From: an uncultured Bacilli bacterium
Lineage (GTDB): Bacteria; Bacillota_I; Bacilli_A; RF39; UBA660
Reading direction: 5' to 3'
Length of the DNA: 64,000 nucleotides
Assembly: GCA_934096715.1 (NCBI GenBank)
Contig: CAKOMQ010000003.1
Coordinates: 5,721-69,720, forward strand
Below, piece by piece: positions 1,999-57,571 of this stretch. Position numbers and translations under genes: made by a program. The number at the start of each line of letters is the position of its first letter. The stretch's first letter is position 1. The notes beneath the pieces were generated by a model. It did not search any database. It was not told the DNA's origin and saw nothing but the letters and a program-made list of their open reading frames with translations.

Positions 1999-2250
1999 CG
2001 CTAGCCGCACCCGTGCTACAACGCACTAGGCGGCTCTATTATCGAACGCCCTATTGGATCATGAACGGATCGTCAAGTGACCCATTTCCGCCCAAATACG
2101 CTTGATTCGATGTAAGATAGAAGACTGGGCGAGCGCCGCCACCCGCAGGGTACACGCGGCCGTTGTACACGCTACCGTCGCTAGTGACATCCCACGCAGT
2201 GAATTCACCATTGCTATTAGCCCCATAACGAGAAAGCGTCCATTCAAAAG
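1999..2250. other. Local GC-rich patch over the 3' end and 3' flank of the 2051-3580 gene
   Basis: My hand count gives 132 G+C in 2001-2240 (~55%), against AT-rich flanks. Codon usage switches to GCG/GGC/CGC/GTG-type codons only in the last ~65 codons. The patch continues ~50 nt past the stop. Confidence 0.8.
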
Positions 2251-3580
2251 TAGACTTTGTGGTATCATTATTACTTGGATGCATCCACCCTGTTTTTAAT
2301 GTGGCTTGATTTGCAGTAGTACTTCCTCTTAGTGCTAAAGCACTTGAACCTAAGGACATTTGATAGTCACTTGCATACATTAACCCTATTTTGGCACTTG
2401 GTGTTGTCCATTCTCCTACTGTACTTGTTTTCGTACTTCTATTCATTTCATGTAAATATATTTGTTGTGTTGTTATACTATAATAATTTGGTCCATTACT
2501 TCCATCGTATGTTTTTGTGTTTACTGCACTCCATGTCCAATTCTCTATTTTATTTGACCATTCTGTATTTTGTAAGTAATCGTATGTTGTGTTTGTTAAG
2601 AATCCAGAACCATTTAAACTTGTATATAATGTACTATCTTCCCAATTTACATCTTCATTTGTATCATTCCATTTTGCTGATATTAATTGTTTGTATTTGA
2701 TTAGTTTAACATGATTATTTCCGTTTGAATCAGGGAATACTCCAATTATTCTATACATGTATTTATCTTGATTTGTTGTACATTCTGATTTGTTATTTAT
2801 ACCAAAGCAGATAAAGTTATCTGGGTTAGTACTAGTTCCTACTGCGCCACTTCCTGTATATCTATAGCCATCTCCTTCTAGTCCACTTTGCCATAAGTTA
2901 CCTGAATCAATTAAATATTGTGCTAGTACTGGACCAGGTTCGTGTAACTTACATGAGAATGCCTTTTTATCTCCACTTGTATATGGTTCAATTTTTATTA
3001 TGTATGAATTACCTACTAGTTTATCTTGAGTATTTGCTGTATTTGTTACACTACTTGTTAGTGGTATTGATACACTTTGTCCTTTTGTTAAGTTTTTAAT
3101 TTCTCCACTTACTATGATTCCATTAGTTCCAGCAGTCGTAAGTTCCTTAAGAGTCATTGTCTTTTCTCCAACTACTACTTTTACATCTGAGTCACTATTA
3201 TCTGTTATTGGATTAGTTACTGTTGCTGTTACCTTATAATTATAAGTACAGTCTAGCGCTTCATCTCCTTCTGGTAATTGTGCTGTTGCTAATGTATAGT
3301 TTGGATTAGTTTCAAGTGCTAGTCCATTCTCGTTTTCATTAGCATAATAAGTCTTACCTGCATTTGCTTGACTCATTAGATTCGCATCTAAATTTAGATA
3401 TAACTTAGATGTTTTAATTTGCATTGTTGGATTTCCTAAGTTGTTTGCTTTACCTGATACCTTAGCCCCCGTCTTATCACTAGTTGCATTTATACTAAAG
3501 TATGCATATGTTCCGCCTACTAATAGTAATAATGCAAAAGTGAATGCTACAACTATAAGTTGCTTTTTCTTTTCATTCAT
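2051..3580 (-). CDS. Secreted/surface protein with SipW-type (TasA/camelysin-like) signal peptide
   Basis: 509-aa ORF with an AAAGGAAAGG SD. The N-terminus KKKQLIVVAFTFALLLLVGGTYAYFS carries the GG-T-[FY]-A-Y-F motif of SipW-cognate signal peptides. The C-terminus (WTLSR...GGGARPVFYL...GNGSLDDPFMI) resembles a domain ending recurrent in Firmicute surface proteins. Confidence 0.6.
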   Translation of the reverse strand: MNEKKKQLIVVAFTFALLLLVGGTYAYFSINATSDKTGAKVSGKANNLGNPTMQIKTSKLYLNLDANLMSQANAGKTYYANENENGLALETNPNYTLATAQLPEGDEALDCTYNYKVTATVTNPITDNSDSDVKVVVGEKTMTLKELTTAGTNGIIVSGEIKNLTKGQSVSIPLTSSVTNTANTQDKLVGNSYIIKIEPYTSGDKKAFSCKLHEPGPVLAQYLIDSGNLWQSGLEGDGYRYTGSGAVGTSTNPDNFICFGINNKSECTTNQDKYMYRIIGVFPDSNGNNHVKLIKYKQLISAKWNDTNEDVNWEDSTLYTSLNGSGFLTNTTYDYLQNTEWSNKIENWTWSAVNTKTYDGSNGPNYYSITTQQIYLHEMNRSTKTSTVGEWTTPSAKIGLMYASDYQMSLGSSALALRGSTTANQATLKTGWMHPSNNDTTKSTFEWTLSRYGANSNGEFTAWDVTSDGSVYNGRVYPAGGGARPVFYLTSNQAYLGGNGSLDDPFMIQ

Positions 3581-6849: not shown

Positions 6850-9800
6850 TTAAAATGTAACTCTTTTTCTATTTTTAATTATTAAAACTATTAATACTAT
6901 TATTATACCTAACATGATATACATTAATTTACTATAACTCTTACTAGAGTTTTCATAATAACTAGTATCTTCTTTAGTATCCTTCTTTATGGTATTATCT
7001 TCTTTTTTAGAATTATCATCTATAATATTGGAATTATTACTATTAACTTTATTAGTAGTATTCTTAATAGAATCAACAGTCGCAAGTATACTACCCTTAT
7101 TACCAGCTTGATCTTGATAACTAAATATAAATTCTCCATTACTAGTAAATTCATAATAATCTAGTCCATTATTATTTAAAATACTAACATTCTTTTTATC
7201 AAAAGTAACTTTAGCTATTACAGTATTATTATTAGTCTTAGTATAAGTAACACTAGCAGAAGGGCCTATTCTATCTATCCAAGTAACTTTGGATGTAGCA
7301 TAACCAATATTACCTGCTTTATCTTTAAACTTAAATATATATTCTCCATTATCAACAAATATAAACTTATATGGATTATCATTTAAACTATCACTAAGAA
7401 CTTCTACTTCTTCATTAACACTTAATGTAGCAGTAACATTATTATTAGTTATACTATTAATATCATAAGTTATTTTACCTACTGGAGATATTTTATCTAT
7501 CCAATCAACTTTCGCTACTATCCTAGTCTCATTATAAGTAAAGTTATCTCTTAATATAAAAGTAAACTCCCCATTATCAGTAAATACATGTTCACTACCA
7601 CCTTCACTTATAATAGTAGTATTATCTTTATCATAATCAATTAATTTAACAGTAACATCTTGATTAGTAATAGAAGTAGTACTATAAACTAGACTACCTG
7701 TAGGGCTACTCATCTTAGTAGAATCTTGATATAGATTAAACATACGAGCAGCAAACCAATTACCATTAGATGCATTAGTTGCTGCAACTCTAACATACAT
7801 CACTTCATTTGTAGGATCAGTTTCTATTCTCTTAATATTTTCAAATCCATTATTTATATCATTTTGATTACCAGTATATTCTAAATTATTCATCTCACCC
7901 AGTAAGAAAAAGTTAACTCCATCCATACTGCCTTCAATTTTACCATCAATTATTTTTCCATTACCACCACCAGCTGGAATATATTCCAAAAGTGACAAGT
8001 GAATAGAATTTTTTAATTTAATAGTAATATATCTTTCAGTATCATTTCCATTCCAATCAGAATGCCATCTAGTATAGTAGTTACCATCTATTACATTCTT
8101 AGCACTTCCATCATGGTTAGTTGCTTCACTTGATACACCAGCTATTTCTAAATAACTAATTGGAACATACTTCTTATCCATTTCTACTTGATCTAATGTA
8201 AAATCAAAAGTAATATAATTACCTGGTAAACTAGTACCTGTACGAGAATACCTAACATCTACACTAGTATTACCACTTAAATCTGGATATTCATCTTTAT
8301 AAGATATCCAAGTACTAGTACCATGTATTCTCCATTCCATCTCTTTAGTAGATCCTATTACCTTATTTTCTAAATCATTATTATATAAAGTATTTTCTTT
8401 TATATCTTTTTTAGTAATATCTATTATATAACTAGGTTTATTTATATCAAGTCCATCTATATAAATAAGAATATCATCTTCTTCATTTATAGATTCTATT
8501 TCTTCTAAAGATAATTCATACATCTTATCAAGTATCGAAGATGACTTAGTTACTCCACCATCTAAACTATAATGCCAAGATAAATCATAATCTTTATATA
8601 AATCATTAAATATAATCTTATTTTTATTATCACCATCAAATGAGAATGTAGCTATTTCACTATCAACTATATCTAAAAGAACTTTACTAACTTCACGTGT
8701 TGCTTTATCAGTTATTTGATTACCACCATCTTTAATACTTGCTTTAACTAATGCATCATGTTCCTTATTAATAATATCTATACCTAGACTATTAGTTAAA
8801 TGTGGTTTTATAAGTTTAAGTAAATCACTCATTGCCATTGGATAATATGTATAGCTATCAATAATCTTTATAGCCAAATTATGCCATTCTTCATCACTTA
8901 CATTATTCTTTTCATATTCTTTTATTAAATAATCATATGTATCTAAATTTAAATTCCATATATTAAGAGACTCATTATAAATAGATGTCTTATTTTGATA
9001 AGAATTAGCAAGTAAATTAATTAAATAAGATTTTTCATATAAATCATAATTATTTATATTATCTTGTTCCAAATATACATAAGAAGCACTATAACCTGAA
9101 GATGACGCCGTTGATATATTATTTATAAATGGTTTATTAGCCCAGTTAAATATAGTCCTATAAACTTTAGCACTATACCAACTAGTACCACTTTTACCCC
9201 ATCCAAATATATTATTAGCTATATTAAACGTTCCTGTACCGTCAGAATTTTCTATATAATATAATACTGCTTCATGACCAGGTTGATATATTCCAATAGT
9301 TGGTCTACCTATACTATTAAACAGTGATTGAAATACACGAGATTGATTCCAACAAATACCACCCTTATTGATAACCATCCAGTATCTTTGTATTTTATCA
9401 CCAATTGGTACTCCATACTCAGATAGTTTATACAAAGTATCCCATTTATCCTTATATAATAGAGAATGAAATTCTTCATCATTATAACTTGTTCCATGTC
9501 CTATATGATTTACATACTTATATACACTTTCATTATTATTATTAATTCTTGTATAATAGTTTAACCATTTTATTTCATCATTACGAGCTCCATCACTCAT
9601 AAGTATACGCATTAACTCAACTTTATAGTTTTCAAAAGCTTCTTTATAACTACCAAATAATCCATCGTCATATAGTTTTTTATATATATTAAATCTTTCT
9701 TTATAATCGTATGTAGGAGCAACATGAGCATAATTAAGAGAAGACGCAACCGTATCAGATGAATAAGTTGCAGAAAGTCCTATAATCATTTTTCTATAAA

Positions 9801-36389: not shown

Positions 36390-37157
36390 TTAATCTGATA
36401 TATTTTCTAATATGGCAATAATTTCGTTTATAGATTTTAAAGCATCATCAAAACTTACATGTTTTGTGTATTCCAACTTTTCTTGGTAATCAATATAAAC
36501 TTTTCTTAAAGTATCACTGCTATCTATTATTTCTATTATTTCTTTAAATTCAGGTATATCAAAAACAGTATTTCTTTTTAAAAAAGTATTTTTAATAGCG
36601 TTATATAAATTAGTTTCGTTTATATTATCTCTAAAATTATACGTTATCATATAGATGTCATAAAAATCTTTTGCACGCGTATTAACAATATTTCTACTTA
36701 TGATACTATTAAACTTTTCTGCTAAAATAGTTTCTAAATTATAAGCAAGAATATTTATTTTTTTATCTTCAAATATTGAATTATATTTATATTTAATTTC
36801 TTTAGGAGTAATTATATCTCCTGTTGTAATCTCAATAAAGAAATTAGTTCTTATTTTATCAAATACACCTTTTACATTAATACGAAATCCCCCATATTCA
36901 TCATCAGATCTAATATCTTTAATACTTTCGATTTCAAATGTTACATTGTCATTAATATCTATATTTAAAATATTATTAAACATGTTTCTAATAGTTTCTT
37001 CATTTAAAGGTAAACTTTTTAAAGTAGCATCCAAATCTTTGGTTGTTCTTAAATCTTCACCAATTATTGATGATAATAAAACTCCGCCCTTTAGAATTAT
37101 ATTGTTTCTATAATCACTTTTTTCTAAACGCATCAATACATGTTCAAAGAAAAACAT
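36390..37157 (-). CDS. abiEii: AbiEii/AbiGii-family nucleotidyltransferase toxin (type IV TA)
   Basis: Motifs ILKGGVLLSSIIGEDLRTTKDLDATL. Family-like sequence continues 26 sense codons upstream of the ATG, up to the abiEi stop. Confidence 0.7.
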   Translation of the reverse strand: MFFFEHVLMRLEKSDYRNNIILKGGVLLSSIIGEDLRTTKDLDATLKSLPLNEETIRNMFNNILNIDINDNVTFEIESIKDIRSDDEYGGFRINVKGVFDKIRTNFFIEITTGDIITPKEIKYKYNSIFEDKKINILAYNLETILAEKFNSIISRNIVNTRAKDFYDIYMITYNFRDNINETNLYNAIKNTFLKRNTVFDIPEFKEIIEIIDSSDTLRKVYIDYQEKLEYTKHVSFDDALKSINEIIAILENISD

Positions 37158-37235
37158 TTGATGAAAATGATGTGAAAGATTACTATTACCATTTGTTTTT
37201 TTCTTAATTACACTATTTAATTTATCAGAATTAAA

Positions 37236-37838
37236 TTATAATAACACCTCCATTAATTCTACGACTTCATTCTCAATCCCCATTATTTTTGCATATTTAA
37301 TCAATTTTAAAATATTCTTGTTTTTGTTTTCAGCATATCCTTTTAATGCTTTGGAATAAATCTCTTTATCCATACGATTTTTATCTTTTATAATATCACA
37401 AATTGTTCTTTCTAAATCATAACATTTAACTTCTAATTCATTAATAGTTTTAATAATATCTAATCCTAATTCAAAAATATCATTTTTAACATATCTTAAA
37501 GATACATTCTTATTATCTAGTAAACTCCCGCTATAATTATATGGTACAGTAATATCATATACAAGTGGAATTCTATCAGTAAGATTGTGTAGATATAGCG
37601 CTGTAGCGTGCGAATAACACATTGATTTACTACATTTTGATAAAATATAAAAATTATCTACAGGATATTCAGGCAATTTATAAACTCCATACCCAACCTT
37701 TTCTAACTTGTTTTCGTTTATTAAATTACTTAAAAAAAATCTTTTAAATCCTAATTCATCTATTTCTTTTGTTGTAATATACCCATTTTTTTCTCTGACA
37801 CAATTTAAAATCTTATCATAATTATTCATATCCATCAT
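37236..37838 (-). CDS. abiEi: AbiEi-family antitoxin/transcriptional regulator
   Basis: N-terminal wHTH-like ILNCVREKNGYITTKEIDELG...LEKVGYGVYKL, located upstream of abiEii. Confidence 0.7.
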   Translation of the reverse strand: MMDMNNYDKILNCVREKNGYITTKEIDELGFKRFFLSNLINENKLEKVGYGVYKLPEYPVDNFYILSKCSKSMCYSHATALYLHNLTDRIPLVYDITVPYNYSGSLLDNKNVSLRYVKNDIFELGLDIIKTINELEVKCYDLERTICDIIKDKNRMDKEIYSKALKGYAENKNKNILKLIKYAKIMGIENEVVELMEVLL

Positions 37839-52708: not shown

Positions 52709-53305
52709 TTAACGTTTTTTGGCACAAAGAATAAAAAATCCCTTACTTTTTTTAATGATATCACAATCATAATGCTTTGATACTTCTCTTTGAATGCTTT
52801 CTGCACCTTGATTCTTTCTAATAACAAACCATAATTCTCCATTATCATTAAGTCTTTCCAATCCACCTAAAAGTATATTTAAAACAACTTGTTTTCCTGC
52901 TCTAATCGGTGGATTAGTAATGATTAAATCATATGTATTTGTAACATTAGAATATACATTACTAAGAAAAGAAGAAGCATCAACCTTATTTAACCCAATA
53001 TTCATTTTAGCTAAATGAACTGCTCTTTTATTAACATCAACCATATCAGTATGTACACCTAGTATTTTAGATAAAGTTATACCAATAAAACCATAACCAC
53101 ATCCTACATCTAGAATACTATTAATATTTTCGATATTATTAGATGACAAAAAGGTTTTAACTAAAAACAAGCTTCCATAATCAACTTCATTTTTAGAAAA
53201 AACTCCATTATCACTTTTAAACATAAAATCATATTCATTATAGGAAAATTTTATGTCTCTAAGTTCACTCTTTAAATTATCGTTATTAGTAAAATAATGT
53301 TCCAA
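52709..53305 (-). CDS. Class I SAM-dependent methyltransferase (YbxB/RsmC small-domain type)
   Basis: TTG start after a GGAGAAA SD. Motifs are NGVFSKNEVDYGS, DVGCGYGFIG and ITNPPIRAGK. Its position immediately upstream of rpoB matches Bacillus ybxB. Confidence 0.8.
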   Translation of the reverse strand: MEHYFTNNDNLKSELRDIKFSYNEYDFMFKSDNGVFSKNEVDYGSLFLVKTFLSSNNIENINSILDVGCGYGFIGITLSKILGVHTDMVDVNKRAVHLAKMNIGLNKVDASSFLSNVYSNVTNTYDLIITNPPIRAGKQVVLNILLGGLERLNDNGELWFVIRKNQGAESIQREVSKHYDCDIIKKSKGFFILCAKKR

Positions 53306-53394: not shown

Positions 53395-53487
53395 CTTTAG
53401 AACATTTTGTCTACAAAAAATGTGTATTATTTAAAAAGAAACTGACTACGATTCCCAGCGGAACTAAACCAATTTCTTTATGTCTAA

Positions 53488-53516
53488 ATTGTACAAAATA
53501 ATTATTGTTATGTCAA
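53488..53516 (-). promoter_or_regulatory. Consensus promoter of the ybxB-rpoB-rpoC operon
   Basis: Minus strand: TTGACA (53516-53511), 17 nt, TACAAT (53493-53488). Confidence 0.65.
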
Positions 53517-53554
53517 ACATAATATAATTAATAATAAATAGGCCTTTCTGTAAA

Positions 53555-53706
53555 ATAAAAAGAAAACTCTATCAATTAAGATAGAGATTCTCACATTTTC
53601 GTTCGGGATAATTTATTGCTCGCACCACCCGAGAGCGAGAAACATTGTCGACCGGAATAATTTATTACTCGCACCATCCGGGAGCGAGAAACATTTTCTT
53701 TAATGC
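53555..53706 (-). ncRNA. Candidate ~150-nt small RNA with two tandem pseudoknot modules
   Basis: It has its own promoter (53741-53713). Two ~49-nt modules are each predicted to fold as an H-type pseudoknot (CUCGC/GCGAG plus CCGGA/UCCGG or UCGGG/CCCGA). The terminator is CTCTATC-TTAATT-GATAGAG followed by TTTTCTTTTTATTTT (53586-53551). Confidence 0.55.
53598..53697. repeat. Tandem direct repeat, 2 copies of ~49 nt (plus partial third start)
   Basis: Equivalent positions are 49 nt apart (for example CTCGC at 53619 and 53668). The copies are about 85% identical, and the differences cluster in one paired stem. Confidence 0.85.
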
Positions 53707-53712
53707 AATTTG

Positions 53713-53741
53713 AATATACAATAATTAATAGCGAATGTCAA
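53713..53741 (-). promoter_or_regulatory. Promoter of the candidate sRNA
   Basis: Minus strand: TTGACA (53741-53736), 17 nt, TATATT (53718-53713). Confidence 0.55.
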
Positions 53742-53810: not shown

Positions 53811-54053
53811 TTAGAACATTTTATCTATATTATTTGGAACATTTCCCCCTACTACTTTACTAATTATTTTATCTTCTTGTTCCTTACTTACTTTTTTACC
53901 AGTCATATTACTTAAAGTACTTATAACTTCTCTCAATGTTTTTTCATCTTTCATATTACCATCTTGTAATTTTTTAGCAAGATCCATAATAGTATTTTTA
54001 TCTACCTTAGTTCTCTTTTCAACCTTCTTAAAAAAAGAATCATTTAAATTCAT
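53811..54053 (-). CDS. SpoVIF-like small protein (stage VI sporulation protein F family)
   Basis: Likely start MNLNDSFFKKVEKRTKV (AGGTGA SD). The pattern FFKKVEK.T.V....I..LAKKLQ..N.KDE.T.R.VI...S...GK.VSKE.EDKI resembles SpoVIF. Confidence 0.55.
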   Translation of the reverse strand: MNLNDSFFKKVEKRTKVDKNTIMDLAKKLQDGNMKDEKTLREVISTLSNMTGKKVSKEQEDKIISKVVGGNVPNNIDKMF

Positions 54054-54122
54054 AAGTATCACCTAGTAGTATTTTATGCAAGCAATTATTTTTTGACAAA
54101 GAAAAAATAGCCATTAAGACTA

Positions 54123-54911
54123 TTATCTACTTTCTCCGTTTCTAACTTCATCAATATCAGACATAAGACGCCTAGATTCTAAACCTTTATTTAATAATTC
54201 ATTATATTCCTGTAAAGTAATTATTTCCCAGTTTTTTAAATTAAGATAACTTTCTACTCCATATACTCCAGTATTTGCAGTAGGTAACCCTTCTTTTCTT
54301 CCTAATCTAGTTTTAGCATAGTAAATTTCATCATCACTAACTAATTTCTTTATAAGGATATTTTTATCAACAACATTAACTATATTTACAAAGTAATTTG
54401 TTTCACCTTTTTTTATAGTATGCCAGAATTTCACAAGATATTCATCATATTCTCCTACTAAAGTATAAGTACAATCATCACAAGTAACACATATTTTATC
54501 TTTAATACTAGGACGAATTCCCATATTAAACATTTCATGATATGCAGTACATGAATGAGTATAATTATGATATGTTTCTGGATGAGTGTCATTTAAATTA
54601 AAACTTATATCAAAAGATACAATATTATTAGAATTTAATTTTTCTATATATTCAAGACACGTTTTAACAAATGGCTCTTCACAAGCTATTTTAAAAGAAT
54701 GGATATCTGTATTCGCACCATCTATAGAAACAATTGCATCAGTATTATTATTGATTCCATAAGCATTTATACTTCTATCAAATTCTGCTACTATCTCATC
54801 AGTGACTTCTTTATTCCAAAGTTTCTTAGCTCCTTTAAAAATTAAGTTCTCAACATCCCTAATAACAGTATTAGATCGATCATATTTTAATCTTGTTTCT
54901 AAATTTTTCAT
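54123..54911 (-). CDS. Paralogue 1 of a four-member family of unknown function (ends ...VRNGESR)
   Basis: Likely start MKNLETRLKYD (GGAG SD). Shares LKYD, a TYD-like strand and the NYTHSCTAYH motif with paralogue 2. Confidence 0.55.
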   Translation of the reverse strand: MKNLETRLKYDRSNTVIRDVENLIFKGAKKLWNKEVTDEIVAEFDRSINAYGINNNTDAIVSIDGANTDIHSFKIACEEPFVKTCLEYIEKLNSNNIVSFDISFNLNDTHPETYHNYTHSCTAYHEMFNMGIRPSIKDKICVTCDDCTYTLVGEYDEYLVKFWHTIKKGETNYFVNIVNVVDKNILIKKLVSDDEIYYAKTRLGRKEGLPTANTGVYGVESYLNLKNWEIITLQEYNELLNKGLESRRLMSDIDEVRNGESR

Positions 54912-54949
54912 ATATATCTCCAAATATAGAAAAATAGTCATTATGACTA

Positions 54950-55729
54950 TTATCTACTTTCTCCTACTCTTCCTTCTTCACTTGATAGCATTACTGCTCT
55001 TGAAGCCATTATTTCAGCAATCTTTTCACTATATTCTAATTCATCTATTTTAATAAAATCTAATGAATCAATAAGTTTTTGAGCATATAATGCACCATCG
55101 TTAGCAGAAATAGAACTTACATTTTCAGGTAAAATACTTTTACTATATGATACTTTACCTTCATTAGAAATTTTTCTATAAACATTATTCTTACTATCAA
55201 CTGTTACAAGATCATCAAAAATTCCATGTTCATGAGTTAATTCAGAATGTTCAAGTTCTATTAAACTATCATTATATTTAGCAACTAATCTTTCATAAGT
55301 ATCATCAACTCTGTTATTAATAGTTTCAACTATTCTTGGAGTAACATATTCATAGAAAGAATAAGCACCAGTACATGAATGTGTATATTCACGTTCCATA
55401 TCACCATTATTAACTGTTAAATCATTTATAACTGAGTATTCAACTATTCCATTATCATGATTATTTTCATCATAAGTAAGACTAGCATTCATTTTGTCAT
55501 TCTTGTGAGTTAATTCTATTTTATGAGAACCAATTCCATACTCATACGCTTTTACAGTTGTTATACTAGTAGAACCAAAACTATTCTTAGTTTTAACAAA
55601 TTCTTCTCTTATTTGACGTGTTATACGGTCATTAGATATTTTCTTACTATACTTACCAATAACACTTTCTATTGCATCAGCAACTATATTTTTCTTATCA
55701 TATTTTAATTTTATATCAATATTTTCCAT
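54950..55729 (-). CDS. Paralogue 2 (ends ...GRVGESR)
   Basis: Likely start MENIDIKLKYD (GGGGGA SD). Contains ASLTYDEN and REYTHSCTGAY motifs. Confidence 0.55.
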   Translation of the reverse strand: MENIDIKLKYDKKNIVADAIESVIGKYSKKISNDRITRQIREEFVKTKNSFGSTSITTVKAYEYGIGSHKIELTHKNDKMNASLTYDENNHDNGIVEYSVINDLTVNNGDMEREYTHSCTGAYSFYEYVTPRIVETINNRVDDTYERLVAKYNDSLIELEHSELTHEHGIFDDLVTVDSKNNVYRKISNEGKVSYSKSILPENVSSISANDGALYAQKLIDSLDFIKIDELEYSEKIAEIMASRAVMLSSEEGRVGESR

Positions 55730-55762
55730 CTTTTTTTCCCCCTTCAATTAAAATACATCAAT

Positions 55763-55791
55763 ATAATAGCACATTTTTATCTATCTGTCAA
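55763..55791 (-). promoter_or_regulatory. Consensus extended -10 promoter for paralogue 2
   Basis: Minus strand: TTGACA (55791-55786), 17 nt, TATTAT (55768-55763), with TGC upstream. Confidence 0.65.
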
Positions 55792-55833
55792 GTTTTTGTA
55801 AATAGTAAACAAAAAGTAGACAACATTTACTTA

Positions 55834-56622
55834 TTATCTACTTGTTCTTCCTGTATCAATTCCTAAATTATTTAAAACATCATTATATTCGTTTTCATAG
55901 TCTCTAAAAGAAATTGGTGTATAATTTAAGCTAATTGCAAAATCATTTAAATATTCAATTCCTTTAAGTGAACTAGGCATTTCATCTTGAGTAGCATCAA
56001 CTTCTGCTTTCATGTATGAATCAAATAAATTATCATCTCTTACAATTGTCGTTCTTTTTAAGAATTCATCATCTTCTTCGTTATAAGTATATGCTTCTTC
56101 ACTTGAAGCATCACCTTCACTTTTAATAACAGTAAAACTTCTTAAACTATCATCATAAACAGCTTCCATAGAAGTACAATAAGATACACCATCATGAATA
56201 CCTTCTGTTACTAAAGATTCTATAGTTTTAGGAATTTTTGCATCATGGTACCCATAATTATGAACATAACGATTAGTTGTATAATCTTGAAACTTTTCAC
56301 CTATAATTTTTTTACAAAATTCAAGTATACATTCTACATTCTTGTCTTCTCCACGTTTTTCATCATAAGTAATAGTAATTGTTGTATCTAAATAATTAAT
56401 AGTTAAAGACATTCTTCTAGAATTTCCTTCATATGTATATGAATCATACGAATACTTAATATCCTTCTCAACTAGTATTTTTTCTTCTTCATCTTGGAAT
56501 CTATCAAGAATATGTTTCCTTATAACACATTCTGGCGTTCCACCTAATTTTCTTTTTATTTCTTTTTCAATTTCATTGAAATAAGTATGATTTTGATTTA
56601 ATTCTTGAGCATTCTTTTCCAT
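55834..56622 (-). CDS. Paralogue 3 (ends ...DTGRTSR)
   Basis: Likely start MEKNAQEL (GGGGGA SD). Contains ITITYDEK, NRYVHNYGYH and GDASSEEAYTY motifs shared with paralogue 4. Confidence 0.55.
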   Translation of the reverse strand: MEKNAQELNQNHTYFNEIEKEIKRKLGGTPECVIRKHILDRFQDEEEKILVEKDIKYSYDSYTYEGNSRRMSLTINYLDTTITITYDEKRGEDKNVECILEFCKKIIGEKFQDYTTNRYVHNYGYHDAKIPKTIESLVTEGIHDGVSYCTSMEAVYDDSLRSFTVIKSEGDASSEEAYTYNEEDDEFLKRTTIVRDDNLFDSYMKAEVDATQDEMPSSLKGIEYLNDFAISLNYTPISFRDYENEYNDVLNNLGIDTGRTSR

Positions 56623-56654
56623 AAATATTTCCCCCTTGCATATAAATCTTATAA

Positions 56655-56683
56655 ATAATAACACTTTTTTATAAATATGTCAA
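56655..56683 (-). promoter_or_regulatory. Consensus extended -10 promoter for paralogue 3
   Basis: Minus strand: TTGACA (56683-56678), 17 nt, TATTAT (56660-56655), with TGT upstream. Confidence 0.65.
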
Positions 56684-56758
56684 ATTTAACATACTTAAAA
56701 TCATATTAAAGTAACTAACTAAATAATAATATCATTTTACAATTAAATGTAATATAGT

Positions 56759-57571
56759 TTATCTAGCAATTCCTTGCTCCTTTTCTTCACTAATTAAAAT
56801 TCCTCTAGACTTCATAACAGCATTTACCATTTTTTGATATTCATCATAATTGATTTCAACAAATTCAGCACCGTTAATAACTTCATTTACATAATTCCAT
56901 CCACTAAAATTAGTTGGAATTTCTTTATCCTTTTCGAAAACTCCTTTGCTATATATTTCAGTTTTATTATTATCCTTTACCACACAATGTTTTTTCACTA
57001 TTTCTTTTGTACCACGGTCGATTTGATAAAATTCTTCACTAGAATCATTGCCTTCTCTTTTGTATACTCTGTAATCATTAATAATATCATTAAAACTACT
57101 TTCTATCTCATTTTCAAATTCTACCCCATTAGCAATACCTTTGTTAATAAATATTTCACGATTACTTGGAATACCTTGTTGAAGCACATTGAAAGAATTT
57201 ACATAACGATTTATAGTTGTTGTTACATCTTCTCCTTTTTTAACAGTCTCGCTAAATTCAGCAGTAATAAATTTACCAACTTCATTATATTCTTGATCAT
57301 AAGTTAAACTGATAGAAGTGTCATTATCTCCTAAAGTTAACTTCATTTTTTCTCTTCCATTTTCATCATCATTTTTATCAAAAGATATAGTTAAATCCTT
57401 TTTAGAGAGTTTTTGTTGCTCTTCTAAAAATTTACCTAATGTATTATTTTTCATAATTCCATTACCTGCTGGTTCTAACTTTCTTTTAAGTTCAGTTTCG
57501 ATTTCATAAATATTTAGACCATCCACAACTGTTCTCCCATTAATTTTTTTAAACATTCCTAAAAATTCCAT
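56759..57571 (-). CDS. Paralogue 4 (ends ...KEQGIAR)
   Basis: AAGGAG SD 6 nt before the ATG. Contains ISLTYDQE, NRYVNSFN and GNDSSEEFYQI motifs. Confidence 0.55.
   Translation of the reverse strand: MEFLGMFKKINGRTVVDGLNIYEIETELKRKLEPAGNGIMKNNTLGKFLEEQQKLSKKDLTISFDKNDDENGREKMKLTLGDNDTSISLTYDQEYNEVGKFITAEFSETVKKGEDVTTTINRYVNSFNVLQQGIPSNREIFINKGIANGVEFENEIESSFNDIINDYRVYKREGNDSSEEFYQIDRGTKEIVKKHCVVKDNNKTEIYSKGVFEKDKEIPTNFSGWNYVNEVINGAEFVEINYDEYQKMVNAVMKSRGILISEEKEQGIAR

Follow-up and report, generated by a model that had tools for sequence, protein, structure and literature searches.

A predicted cptI antitoxin RNA gene without an adjacent cptN toxin gene upstream of ybxB in an uncultured gut Bacilli bacterium

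Introduction

What is an RNA gene with the layout of a toxin antidote doing in front of a housekeeping gene, with no toxin beside it? The locus that raises this question lies on the minus strand of a 64-kb stretch of DNA from an uncultured Bacilli bacterium, which we refer to as the window. ToxI, the antitoxin RNA of ToxIN in Pectobacterium and Bacillus, is composed of 34- to 36-nt repeats that form a triplex pseudoknot, and its partner is ToxN/AbiQ. In the cptIN family of type III systems, the defining architecture is a promoter, tandem repeats, a terminator and the toxin CptN (PMC3401426). CptI arrays have about 2 to 3 direct repeats, with a constitutive promoter in front and a Rho-independent terminator behind. 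[quoted passage not shown]

Results

A promoter, two pseudoknot repeats and a terminator

The element is flanked by a SpoVIF-like gene (53811-54062; PF14069) and the gene for a YbxB/RsmC-type methyltransferase (52709-53305; PF05175), which is followed by rpoB and then rpoC. Between 53741 and 53551 on the minus strand, the order is promoter, 15-nt leader, two repeats of 49 nt, and a hairpin with a T-run, and each part was found where the preliminary description had placed it. The sigma-70-type promoter (53713-53741) has a -35 element TTGACA (53741-53736), a 17-nt spacer and a -10 element TATATT (53718-53713), with 11 of 12 consensus matches. The 5' leader (53691-53712) closes with GAAAAUGU (53698-53691), the first of three A-rich junctions and the predicted 5' CptN processing site.

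Repeat A (53642-53690; covariance-model score 84.6 bits) contains stem 1, CUCGC/GCGAG (53688-53684 with 53672-53668), stem 2, CCGGA/UCCGG (53681-53677 with 53656-53652), an A/U-rich loop, UAAUAAAUUAU (53667-53657), and the junction GACAAUGU (53649-53642). Repeat B (53593-53641; 65.3 bits) contains the same stem 1 (53639-53635 with 53623-53619), a stem 2 of UCGGG/CCCGA (53632-53628 with 53607-53603), the loop CAAUAAAUUAU (53618-53608) and the junction GAAAAUGU (53600-53593). The 2 copies are direct repeats with a period of 49 nt and are 86% identical, and 4 of their 7 differences make up the two compensatory outer stem-2 pairs. The conserved A-rich junction, GA(A/C)AAUGU, bounds each unit (53698-53691, 53649-53642 and 53600-53593), and its recurrence at the last of these positions accounts for the apparent start of a third repeat. 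The array is closed by an intrinsic terminator (53551-53592) with a 7-bp core stem (53586-53567), which can be extended, and a T-run to about 53551; in a scan of 1.8 kb, no terminator-like site other than that at 53586-53551 came up, and shuffled sequences gave 0.2.

A 24-nt core motif of the repeats occurred twice in the window as compared to 0.00 times expected, and a covariance-model scan of the 64 kb retrieved units A and B only, with the next match at 12.8 bits. Minimum free energy folding of the locus gave a z-score of -2.0, which is uninformative here because such folding cannot represent a pseudoknot. Eight contigs that encode an identical YbxB protein (low-GC, 28%; from Hadza and other human gut metagenomes) were identical in the intergenic region and therefore provided no variation to analyse.

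Other features of the surroundings were also noted. The interval between the terminator and ybxB contains a second near-consensus promoter, TTGACA-17-TACAAT (53428-53516, minus strand), followed by a 13-bp hairpin with a U-run (-14.6 kcal/mol, z -3.0). The sister locus L146 lacks this unit, which had no Rfam match and from its sequence looks like a tiny transcription unit or an attenuator. Upstream of the SpoVIF-like gene, 4 tandem paralogous ORFs of 265 to 276 aa (54123-57571, minus strand) share about 28% mutual identity and have similar C-terminal ends (...GESR, ...GRTSR, ...QGIAR); they belong to no Pfam family and are absent at the matching position in the sister species L146. Further away, an AbiEii gene (PF08843, E 2.8e-34) and an AbiEi-like gene (36390-37838, minus strand) form a type IV toxin-antitoxin or abortive-infection module.

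Covariation of both stems in homologous units

In an alignment of 26 distinct units from genomes (alignment A2), the pseudoknot was 97.7% paired, all 5 stem-2 pairs changed on both sides, and one stem-1 pair switched from C-G to G-C. The covariation score was reached by none of 500 shuffles and approached by no slid register. A scan of genomes and metagenomes yielded at least 265 units, of which 172 were distinct and were used for the family alignment. The stem-2 pairs 18-21/42-45 were formed in 96% to 99% of the 172 units with 3 to 5 pair types each (alternating between CG/UA, GC/AU/UA/CG, GC/AU/GU and GC/AU/UA, respectively), and the stem-1 core 11-14/26-29 was paired in 98% to 99% with alternation between UA/CG and GC/AU. 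Homologous regions thus support both stems of the tandem H-type pseudoknots that had been proposed, and the compensatory pattern pointed out for the outer stem-2 pairs of repeats A and B holds across the family. The preliminary description had also called stem 1 invariant; CUCGC/GCGAG is indeed present in both window units, but the outermost C-G pair was formed in only 54% of the 172 units, so that the conserved core of stem 1 is 4 bp.

Conserved unpaired residues were U15, UGG(U) at 22-25, AUAA(A/G)U at 33-38, A40, U41 and the AAAUGUU junction, of which AAAUGU was conserved across the 172 units at columns 2-8. One unit per locus was picked by a pattern that fixed part of stem 1 and the loop and left stem 2 free, and the conservation of the stem-1 and loop columns is therefore partly imposed.

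Relationship of the repeats to CptI

Searching one genome per species for the stem-1 and loop motif yielded matches of which most, among those listed, were chance hits in high-GC genomes. The genuine matches listed, often in tandem with a period of 49, came only from low-GC gut MAGs named "Bacilli bacterium" or "Tenericutes". The repeat, with 2 copies in the window, has many more in related gut Bacilli genomes and metagenomes. A cassette consisting of a promoter, 2 repeats of 49 nt and a terminator was found 55 to 155 nt upstream of an ORF of 148 to 166 aa (typically about 157 aa) at loci L016, L023, L025, L045/L092, L069, L071, L096 and L126 and at least 60 metagenome loci, and homologous promoters precede these toxin-linked arrays. 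The partner protein starts with MK(I/V)(K/Q)TGYLYHIKDEFF and contains the internal sequence WFIPLSSKVEKYKKI. Searches of Pfam and PADLOC did not recognise it. In a search of PDB sequences, it matched from end to end (residues 4-148 of 157) the CptN toxin crystallised with its CptI from Eubacterium rectale (4RMO_A; E 2.4e-19) and no other solved toxin. Because the same cassette precedes CptN homologs in related loci, we interpret the repeats as CptI antitoxin RNA, and on this homology the window RNA almost certainly belongs to the CptI family.

Repeat A recurs unchanged as repeat 1 of L069, a toxin-linked locus. The counterpart of repeat B is repeat 2 of L023, L059 and L069, all toxin-linked, with 1 nt changed over the stems and loops. 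The terminator sequence in the window, ATCTTAATTGATAGAGTTTTCTTTT, is shared with the L069 terminator that separates cptI from cptN, and the homology ends right after it. Arrays of the A/B type were partnered by a CptN of the L023/L069 clade in 5 loci and were toxin-less in 6, among the matches listed. Since CptI antitoxins are toxin-specific, CptN of the L023/L069 clade would be the expected target.

No Rfam family matched the element: the whole window gave 2 tRNAs only at the gathering threshold, and the locus gave noise only at E<=10, such as MicC at 22.6 bits as compared to a gathering score of 90. Membership in the ToxI family was also considered. ToxIN shares the type III logic, with repeats, a terminator and pseudoknot units that occlude an endoribonuclease, but its repeats are about 36 nt and its partner is ToxN/AbiQ, whereas the family described here has a 49-nt repeat, partners that match CptN (4RMO) with no match in Pfam or PADLOC, and no Rfam match, and this assignment was rejected. 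The same was true for membership in a pseudoknot riboswitch class, for which there was no Rfam match and the downstream genes are mutually unrelated. A reading of the repeats as DNA iterons was likewise considered and rejected.

Comparison with the CptI RNA of Eubacterium rectale

The 45-nt E. rectale CptI repeat, as given by a cloning primer (PMC4627078), is AAGUUUACCACUGACCGAUAUGUGGUAUAUAAAUGGUCGGGUUGA. Its layout is AAGUUU-S1-L1-S2-spacer-S1'-AUAUAAAUG-S2', and the elements follow one another in the same order in the window, where repeat A reads AAUGUUU-CUCGC-UC-CCGGA-UGGU-GCGAG-UAAUAAAUUAU-UCCGG. Both RNAs have a promoter, about 2 tandem repeats followed by a Rho-independent terminator, H-type pseudoknot repeats in which L1 is short and the long A-rich loop includes AUAAAU, and A-rich junctions between the repeats, and both are chromosomal and come from gut Firmicutes. 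In a by-hand alignment anchored at the end of S1', which is too short for statistics, the AUAAAU of the 45-nt repeat and that of the window coincide and the GUUU of the 5' flank is shared. The change A29U or a deletion of U30 abolishes antitoxin activity in E. rectale (PMC4627078); by the same alignment, a by-hand resemblance rather than a statistical test, the counterparts are A33, present in 172 of 172 units, and U34, present in 171 of 172. Processing of E. rectale CptI by CptN needs GA/AAG junctions (PMC4627078), and we infer by analogy that the AAAUGU junction would be their counterpart.

The 2 RNAs also differ. Published cptI repeats are 40 to 48 nt long (PMC3401426), and the 49-nt repeat in the window is 1 nt above this range. 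The spacer between the 5' arm of stem 2 and the 3' arm of stem 1 is a 4-nt UGGU in the window as compared to 2 nt in E. rectale, and the loop is 11 nt as compared to 9. Published cptI repeats are nearly identical to each other (PMC12283969), whereas the paired repeats here usually differ in stem 2 with each copy compensated (60 of 75 distinct two-repeat arrays, L016-L276, among the matches listed). The commonest stem-2 combination in the two-repeat arrays listed was CCGGA with UCGGG, which is that of repeats A and B. Different stems in adjacent repeats may be selected against mis-pairing between units or recombination between repeats.

The absence of a toxin gene in the window

In complete cptIN loci the gene for CptN adjoins the array, whereas the next gene in the window is ybxB and no toxin gene was detected in the 64 kb. 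The cptI terminator and ybxB lie 245 nt apart, which leaves no room for a toxin gene. A tblastn search of the window with 3 CptN sequences identified no cptN (the best hit, E 0.047, was inside rpoC), and 18 mid-sized ORFs of the window contained no ToxN-like domain according to Pfam. The window shared no genes with the toxin-carrying MAG L045. Tandem repeats between a promoter and a terminator are thus present, as is, computationally, an H-type pseudoknot with an A-rich loop along stem 1, but a CptN gene immediately downstream is missing here and present in 70 homologous arrays among the matches listed. Because the toxin is not adjacent, the locus falls short of a complete cptIN system; by homology the RNA is a predicted member of the CptI family, and the element is best described as a putative solo cptI gene without an adjacent cptN. 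The proposal of a type III antitoxin without a toxin therefore stands, now with a named family.

Toxin-less arrays in related genomes

To estimate how common this arrangement is, we examined 143 low-GC sequences (the fetched loci and the window), using nhmmer for the units and tblastn with 5 CptN sequences for the toxins. Arrays were classified as toxin-less if no CptN was found within 600 nt, given at least 700 nt of downstream sequence. Among the matches listed, there were 149 arrays, of which 70 had a full-length CptN downstream, 12 a partial toxin and 46 no CptN within 600 nt, while 6 were interrupted by a contig end and 15 fell into an undetermined class. The toxin-less arrays make up 46 of the 128 classifiable arrays among the matches listed, or about one third, a figure that is indicative only because the census is strain-redundant and built on the matches listed. 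Genes located after the toxin-less arrays were unrelated housekeeping genes (dnaG, tag, rplS, hrcA, an AAA ATPase gene and ybxB), and no alternative toxin was found among the downstream genes inspected.

Such an array could be a neutral relic, that is, a remnant left after deletion of cptN that persists without selection since it is small and recently orphaned. A viable course of loss has to begin with the toxin, and the 12 arrays, among the matches listed, in which an intact cptI is followed by a fragment of cptN are, as judged from sequence, probable intermediate stages of toxin loss. In locus L059 (oriented 7358-7516), for example, an internal deletion has reduced cptN to 52 aa behind an intact cptI array. 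Single-repeat or chimeric orphan units, such as those in L076 and unit 2 of L161 with a 3-bp stem 2, are further signs of decay. Among the matches listed, single-repeat arrays accounted for 16 of 46 toxin-less versus 7 of 70 toxin-linked arrays, and a promoter with at least 10 of 12 consensus matches was present in 31 of 45 versus 59 of 66. Fewer repeats and weaker promoters in the orphans would be expected if some of them are eroding. The terminator was nevertheless kept in 44 of the 46 toxin-less arrays, and stem-2 integrity was alike in the two groups (4.53 bp in toxin-less and 4.61 bp in toxin-linked arrays), again among the matches listed.

Orphan arrays located directly behind a complete cptIN were identified in L045, which has 2 different orphan arrays, and in L126, L146, L223, L239 and L260. 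The order cptI-cptN, 2 toxin-less cptI arrays of different types and an AAA-ATPase gene was observed in L045 (oriented 2224-3300), L092, L260 and L200, a grouping that we term an antitoxin island; one unit of the L045-type island has the stem 1 CUCAC/GUGAG. Solo cptI units with 1 or 2 repeats were also observed upstream of tag in several strains or species (L161, L163, L171, L172, L175 and L176).

The SpoVIF-ybxB site in a sister species and in strains

Relatives with a ybxB of about 70% identity contained no cptI at the SpoVIF-ybxB site, and the comparison of this site therefore rests on one sister species and on strains. In the sister species (L146 and L147), ybxB is 82% identical to that of the window in amino acid sequence, 83% in nucleotide sequence and 73% at third positions. 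Between SpoVIF and ybxB, L146 contains a complete cptIN, a second promoter, a toxin-less A+B array, a terminator and then ybxB. The cptIN has a different repeat type, and its CptN of 158 aa is 58% identical to the toxin of L023. The orphan state of the A+B array is thus common to 2 species whose ybxB genes differ at 27% of the third positions, and the arrays themselves are identical at 104 of 106 nt, which argues against a neutral relic. The -35 and -10 hexamers of the promoter are conserved while the spacer has diverged, and the strong terminator of L146 is unrelated in sequence to that of the window, so that each species is predicted to have a working terminator of its own.

Strain variants of the window species (L277-L283) all had the toxin-less layout. 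In strains L281-L283, 53681 C>U and 53652 G>A together turn the outer C-G pair of stem 2 in repeat A into U-A, a compensatory change that arose within the orphan and is likewise not expected of a relic. A relic would, on the other hand, agree with the SNP density within the species complex, which was 0.048 in the repeats and 0.039 in ybxB, and thus no lower in the repeats than in the neighbouring gene. A second orthologous pair of orphans was identified upstream of dnaG in L070 and L270, where DnaG is 77% identical in amino acid sequence and the unit is identical at 42 of 44 nt.

Strains L281-L283 also carry a G>A change at 53625, where repeat B has its UGGU spacer, a motif that hardly varies; this may be the beginning of inactivation of one module. 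In a distant species with a ybxB of 47% identity (L158, 3984-4759), a complete cptIN adjoins ybxB in the opposite orientation, and the region upstream of ybxB-rpoB may be a recurrent landing site.

Discussion

We suggest, with somewhat more confidence than doubt, that the window contains a toxin-less cptI gene that is retained as an expressed, trans-acting antidote. Transcription from the promoter (53741-53713) to the terminator (53586-53551) would give an RNA of about 150 nt, and its two 49-nt units, separated by the A-rich junctions GA(A/C)AAUGU, would each fold into a stem 1 of 4 to 5 bp and a stem 2 of 5 bp, with the AUAAAU loop along stem 1. In complete loci, the CptN endoribonuclease would cut at the junctions and the released units would hold CptN inactive, as shown for E. 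rectale CptIN, the structure and genetics of which are the source of this model (PMC4627078; reviewed in PMC5086642). Each 49-nt pseudoknot would bind and occlude one CptN active site. The array most likely descends, as far as sequence comparison can indicate, from a once complete cptIN cassette whose toxin was lost in a region with tandem cptIN cassettes. It would be kept as an antidote against L023/L069-clade CptN, whether made from another locus of the same genome or brought in by mobile elements or phages.

That selection now keeps the array as an antidote, and that it is not a relic, appears to us an evenly balanced proposition, while we regard a neutral relic, taken as an explanation in its own right, as possible but rather unlikely. 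The truncated toxins, the single-repeat orphans with their weaker promoters and the unremarkable SNP density all agree with a relic, but the promoter, both pseudoknots, the 3 junctions and the terminator of the window are all intact. We favour the antidote because these signals are intact, change has been compensated and there are 2 cases of orthologous retention. The conservation of the orphans could nonetheless reflect recent transfer or gene conversion, since toxin-linked copies are equally near-identical, as illustrated by repeat 1 of L069.

We consider it very improbable that the element is a cis-regulatory leader, in which the pseudoknots and the terminator would act as a riboswitch-like attenuator of ybxB-rpoB-rpoC that responds to a ligand or a protein. 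The element is located upstream of ybxB on the same strand, but 245 nt and more promoter-like sites lie between them, and relatives with a ybxB of about 70% identity lack the element. An H-type pseudoknot with an A-rich loop recalls the architecture of the preQ1-I and SAM-II aptamers, yet no Rfam riboswitch matched even at E<=10 (preQ1-I/II/III, SAM-II/V, guanidine-III and fluoride). In complete type III loci, how strongly the downstream gene is expressed does depend on read-through of the terminator; here, however, no conserved alternative antiterminator pairing was seen, and the RNA is found in front of genes that have nothing in common (cptN, dnaG, tag, rplS, hrcA and the ATPase gene) and form no coherent regulon. 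The chance that each module instead encodes a peptide of 9 to 10 residues (MFLAPGWCE and MFLALGWCEQ) is negligible, since the AUG...UAA frame present in both modules has no Shine-Dalgarno sequence or other ribosome-binding site, its AUG belongs to the conserved AAAUGU processing junction, substitutions follow RNA pairing rather than synonymous codon change, and homologous units with AAAUGUUCUCGC, one U fewer after the AUG (L016.1, L023.1, L043.1 and L063.1), are shifted into the frame of an unrelated peptide.

The toxin-less cptI gene has parallels in other systems. Pseudo-ToxI of phage PhiTE is, like the window element, an array of repeats resembling a type III antitoxin that has no toxin of its own, and it can neutralise in trans a toxin encoded elsewhere (PMC3475682). 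It is, however, phage-encoded, belongs to the ToxI family (36-nt) and arose under selection for phages that escape abortive infection (PMC3475682), whereas the window element is chromosomal, belongs by homology to the CptI family and is located between housekeeping genes. A motif scan of low-GC viral contigs gave no viral copy among the matches listed. For orphan or anti-addiction antitoxins of type II systems, a protective role against homologous toxins carried by mobile elements has been proposed (PMC2654758, PMC7354431); they too are chromosomal antitoxins without a toxin, but they are proteins whereas the antitoxin in the window is a structured RNA. We found no report of a chromosomal orphan type III antitoxin RNA in the open-access papers searched. 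CptI itself is known, and what is new is its toxin-less chromosomal variant. Because type III systems have been catalogued by searching for toxins, solo antitoxin genes have been invisible to such surveys.

The alignment of 172 units defines an RNA family that is absent from Rfam and allows CptI to be annotated with or without toxins. Solo antidote genes appear to be common in these gut bacteria, and some toxin-less arrays occupy the same chromosomal site across species, with the promoter, the terminator and compensated pairs kept. If expressed, the orphan RNAs would determine which CptN toxins are able to act in the cell, with a bearing on abortive-infection defence against phages, plasmid addiction and the spread of cassettes in the gut microbiota. 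We tentatively raise the further idea, itself rather doubtful, that solo cptI genes form a selectively maintained and diversified chromosomal repertoire of RNA antidotes, each stem type directed against one clade of CptN toxins on mobile elements, in phages or at other loci. The signature of such a repertoire would be cptI-cptN-cptI'-cptI'' islands, as in L045, L146 and L126, together with toxin-less arrays at orthologous sites, and a corollary would be that different stem-2 sequences in neighbouring repeats are selected. If true, this would represent an RNA analog of orphan immunity-gene arrays and anti-addiction modules.
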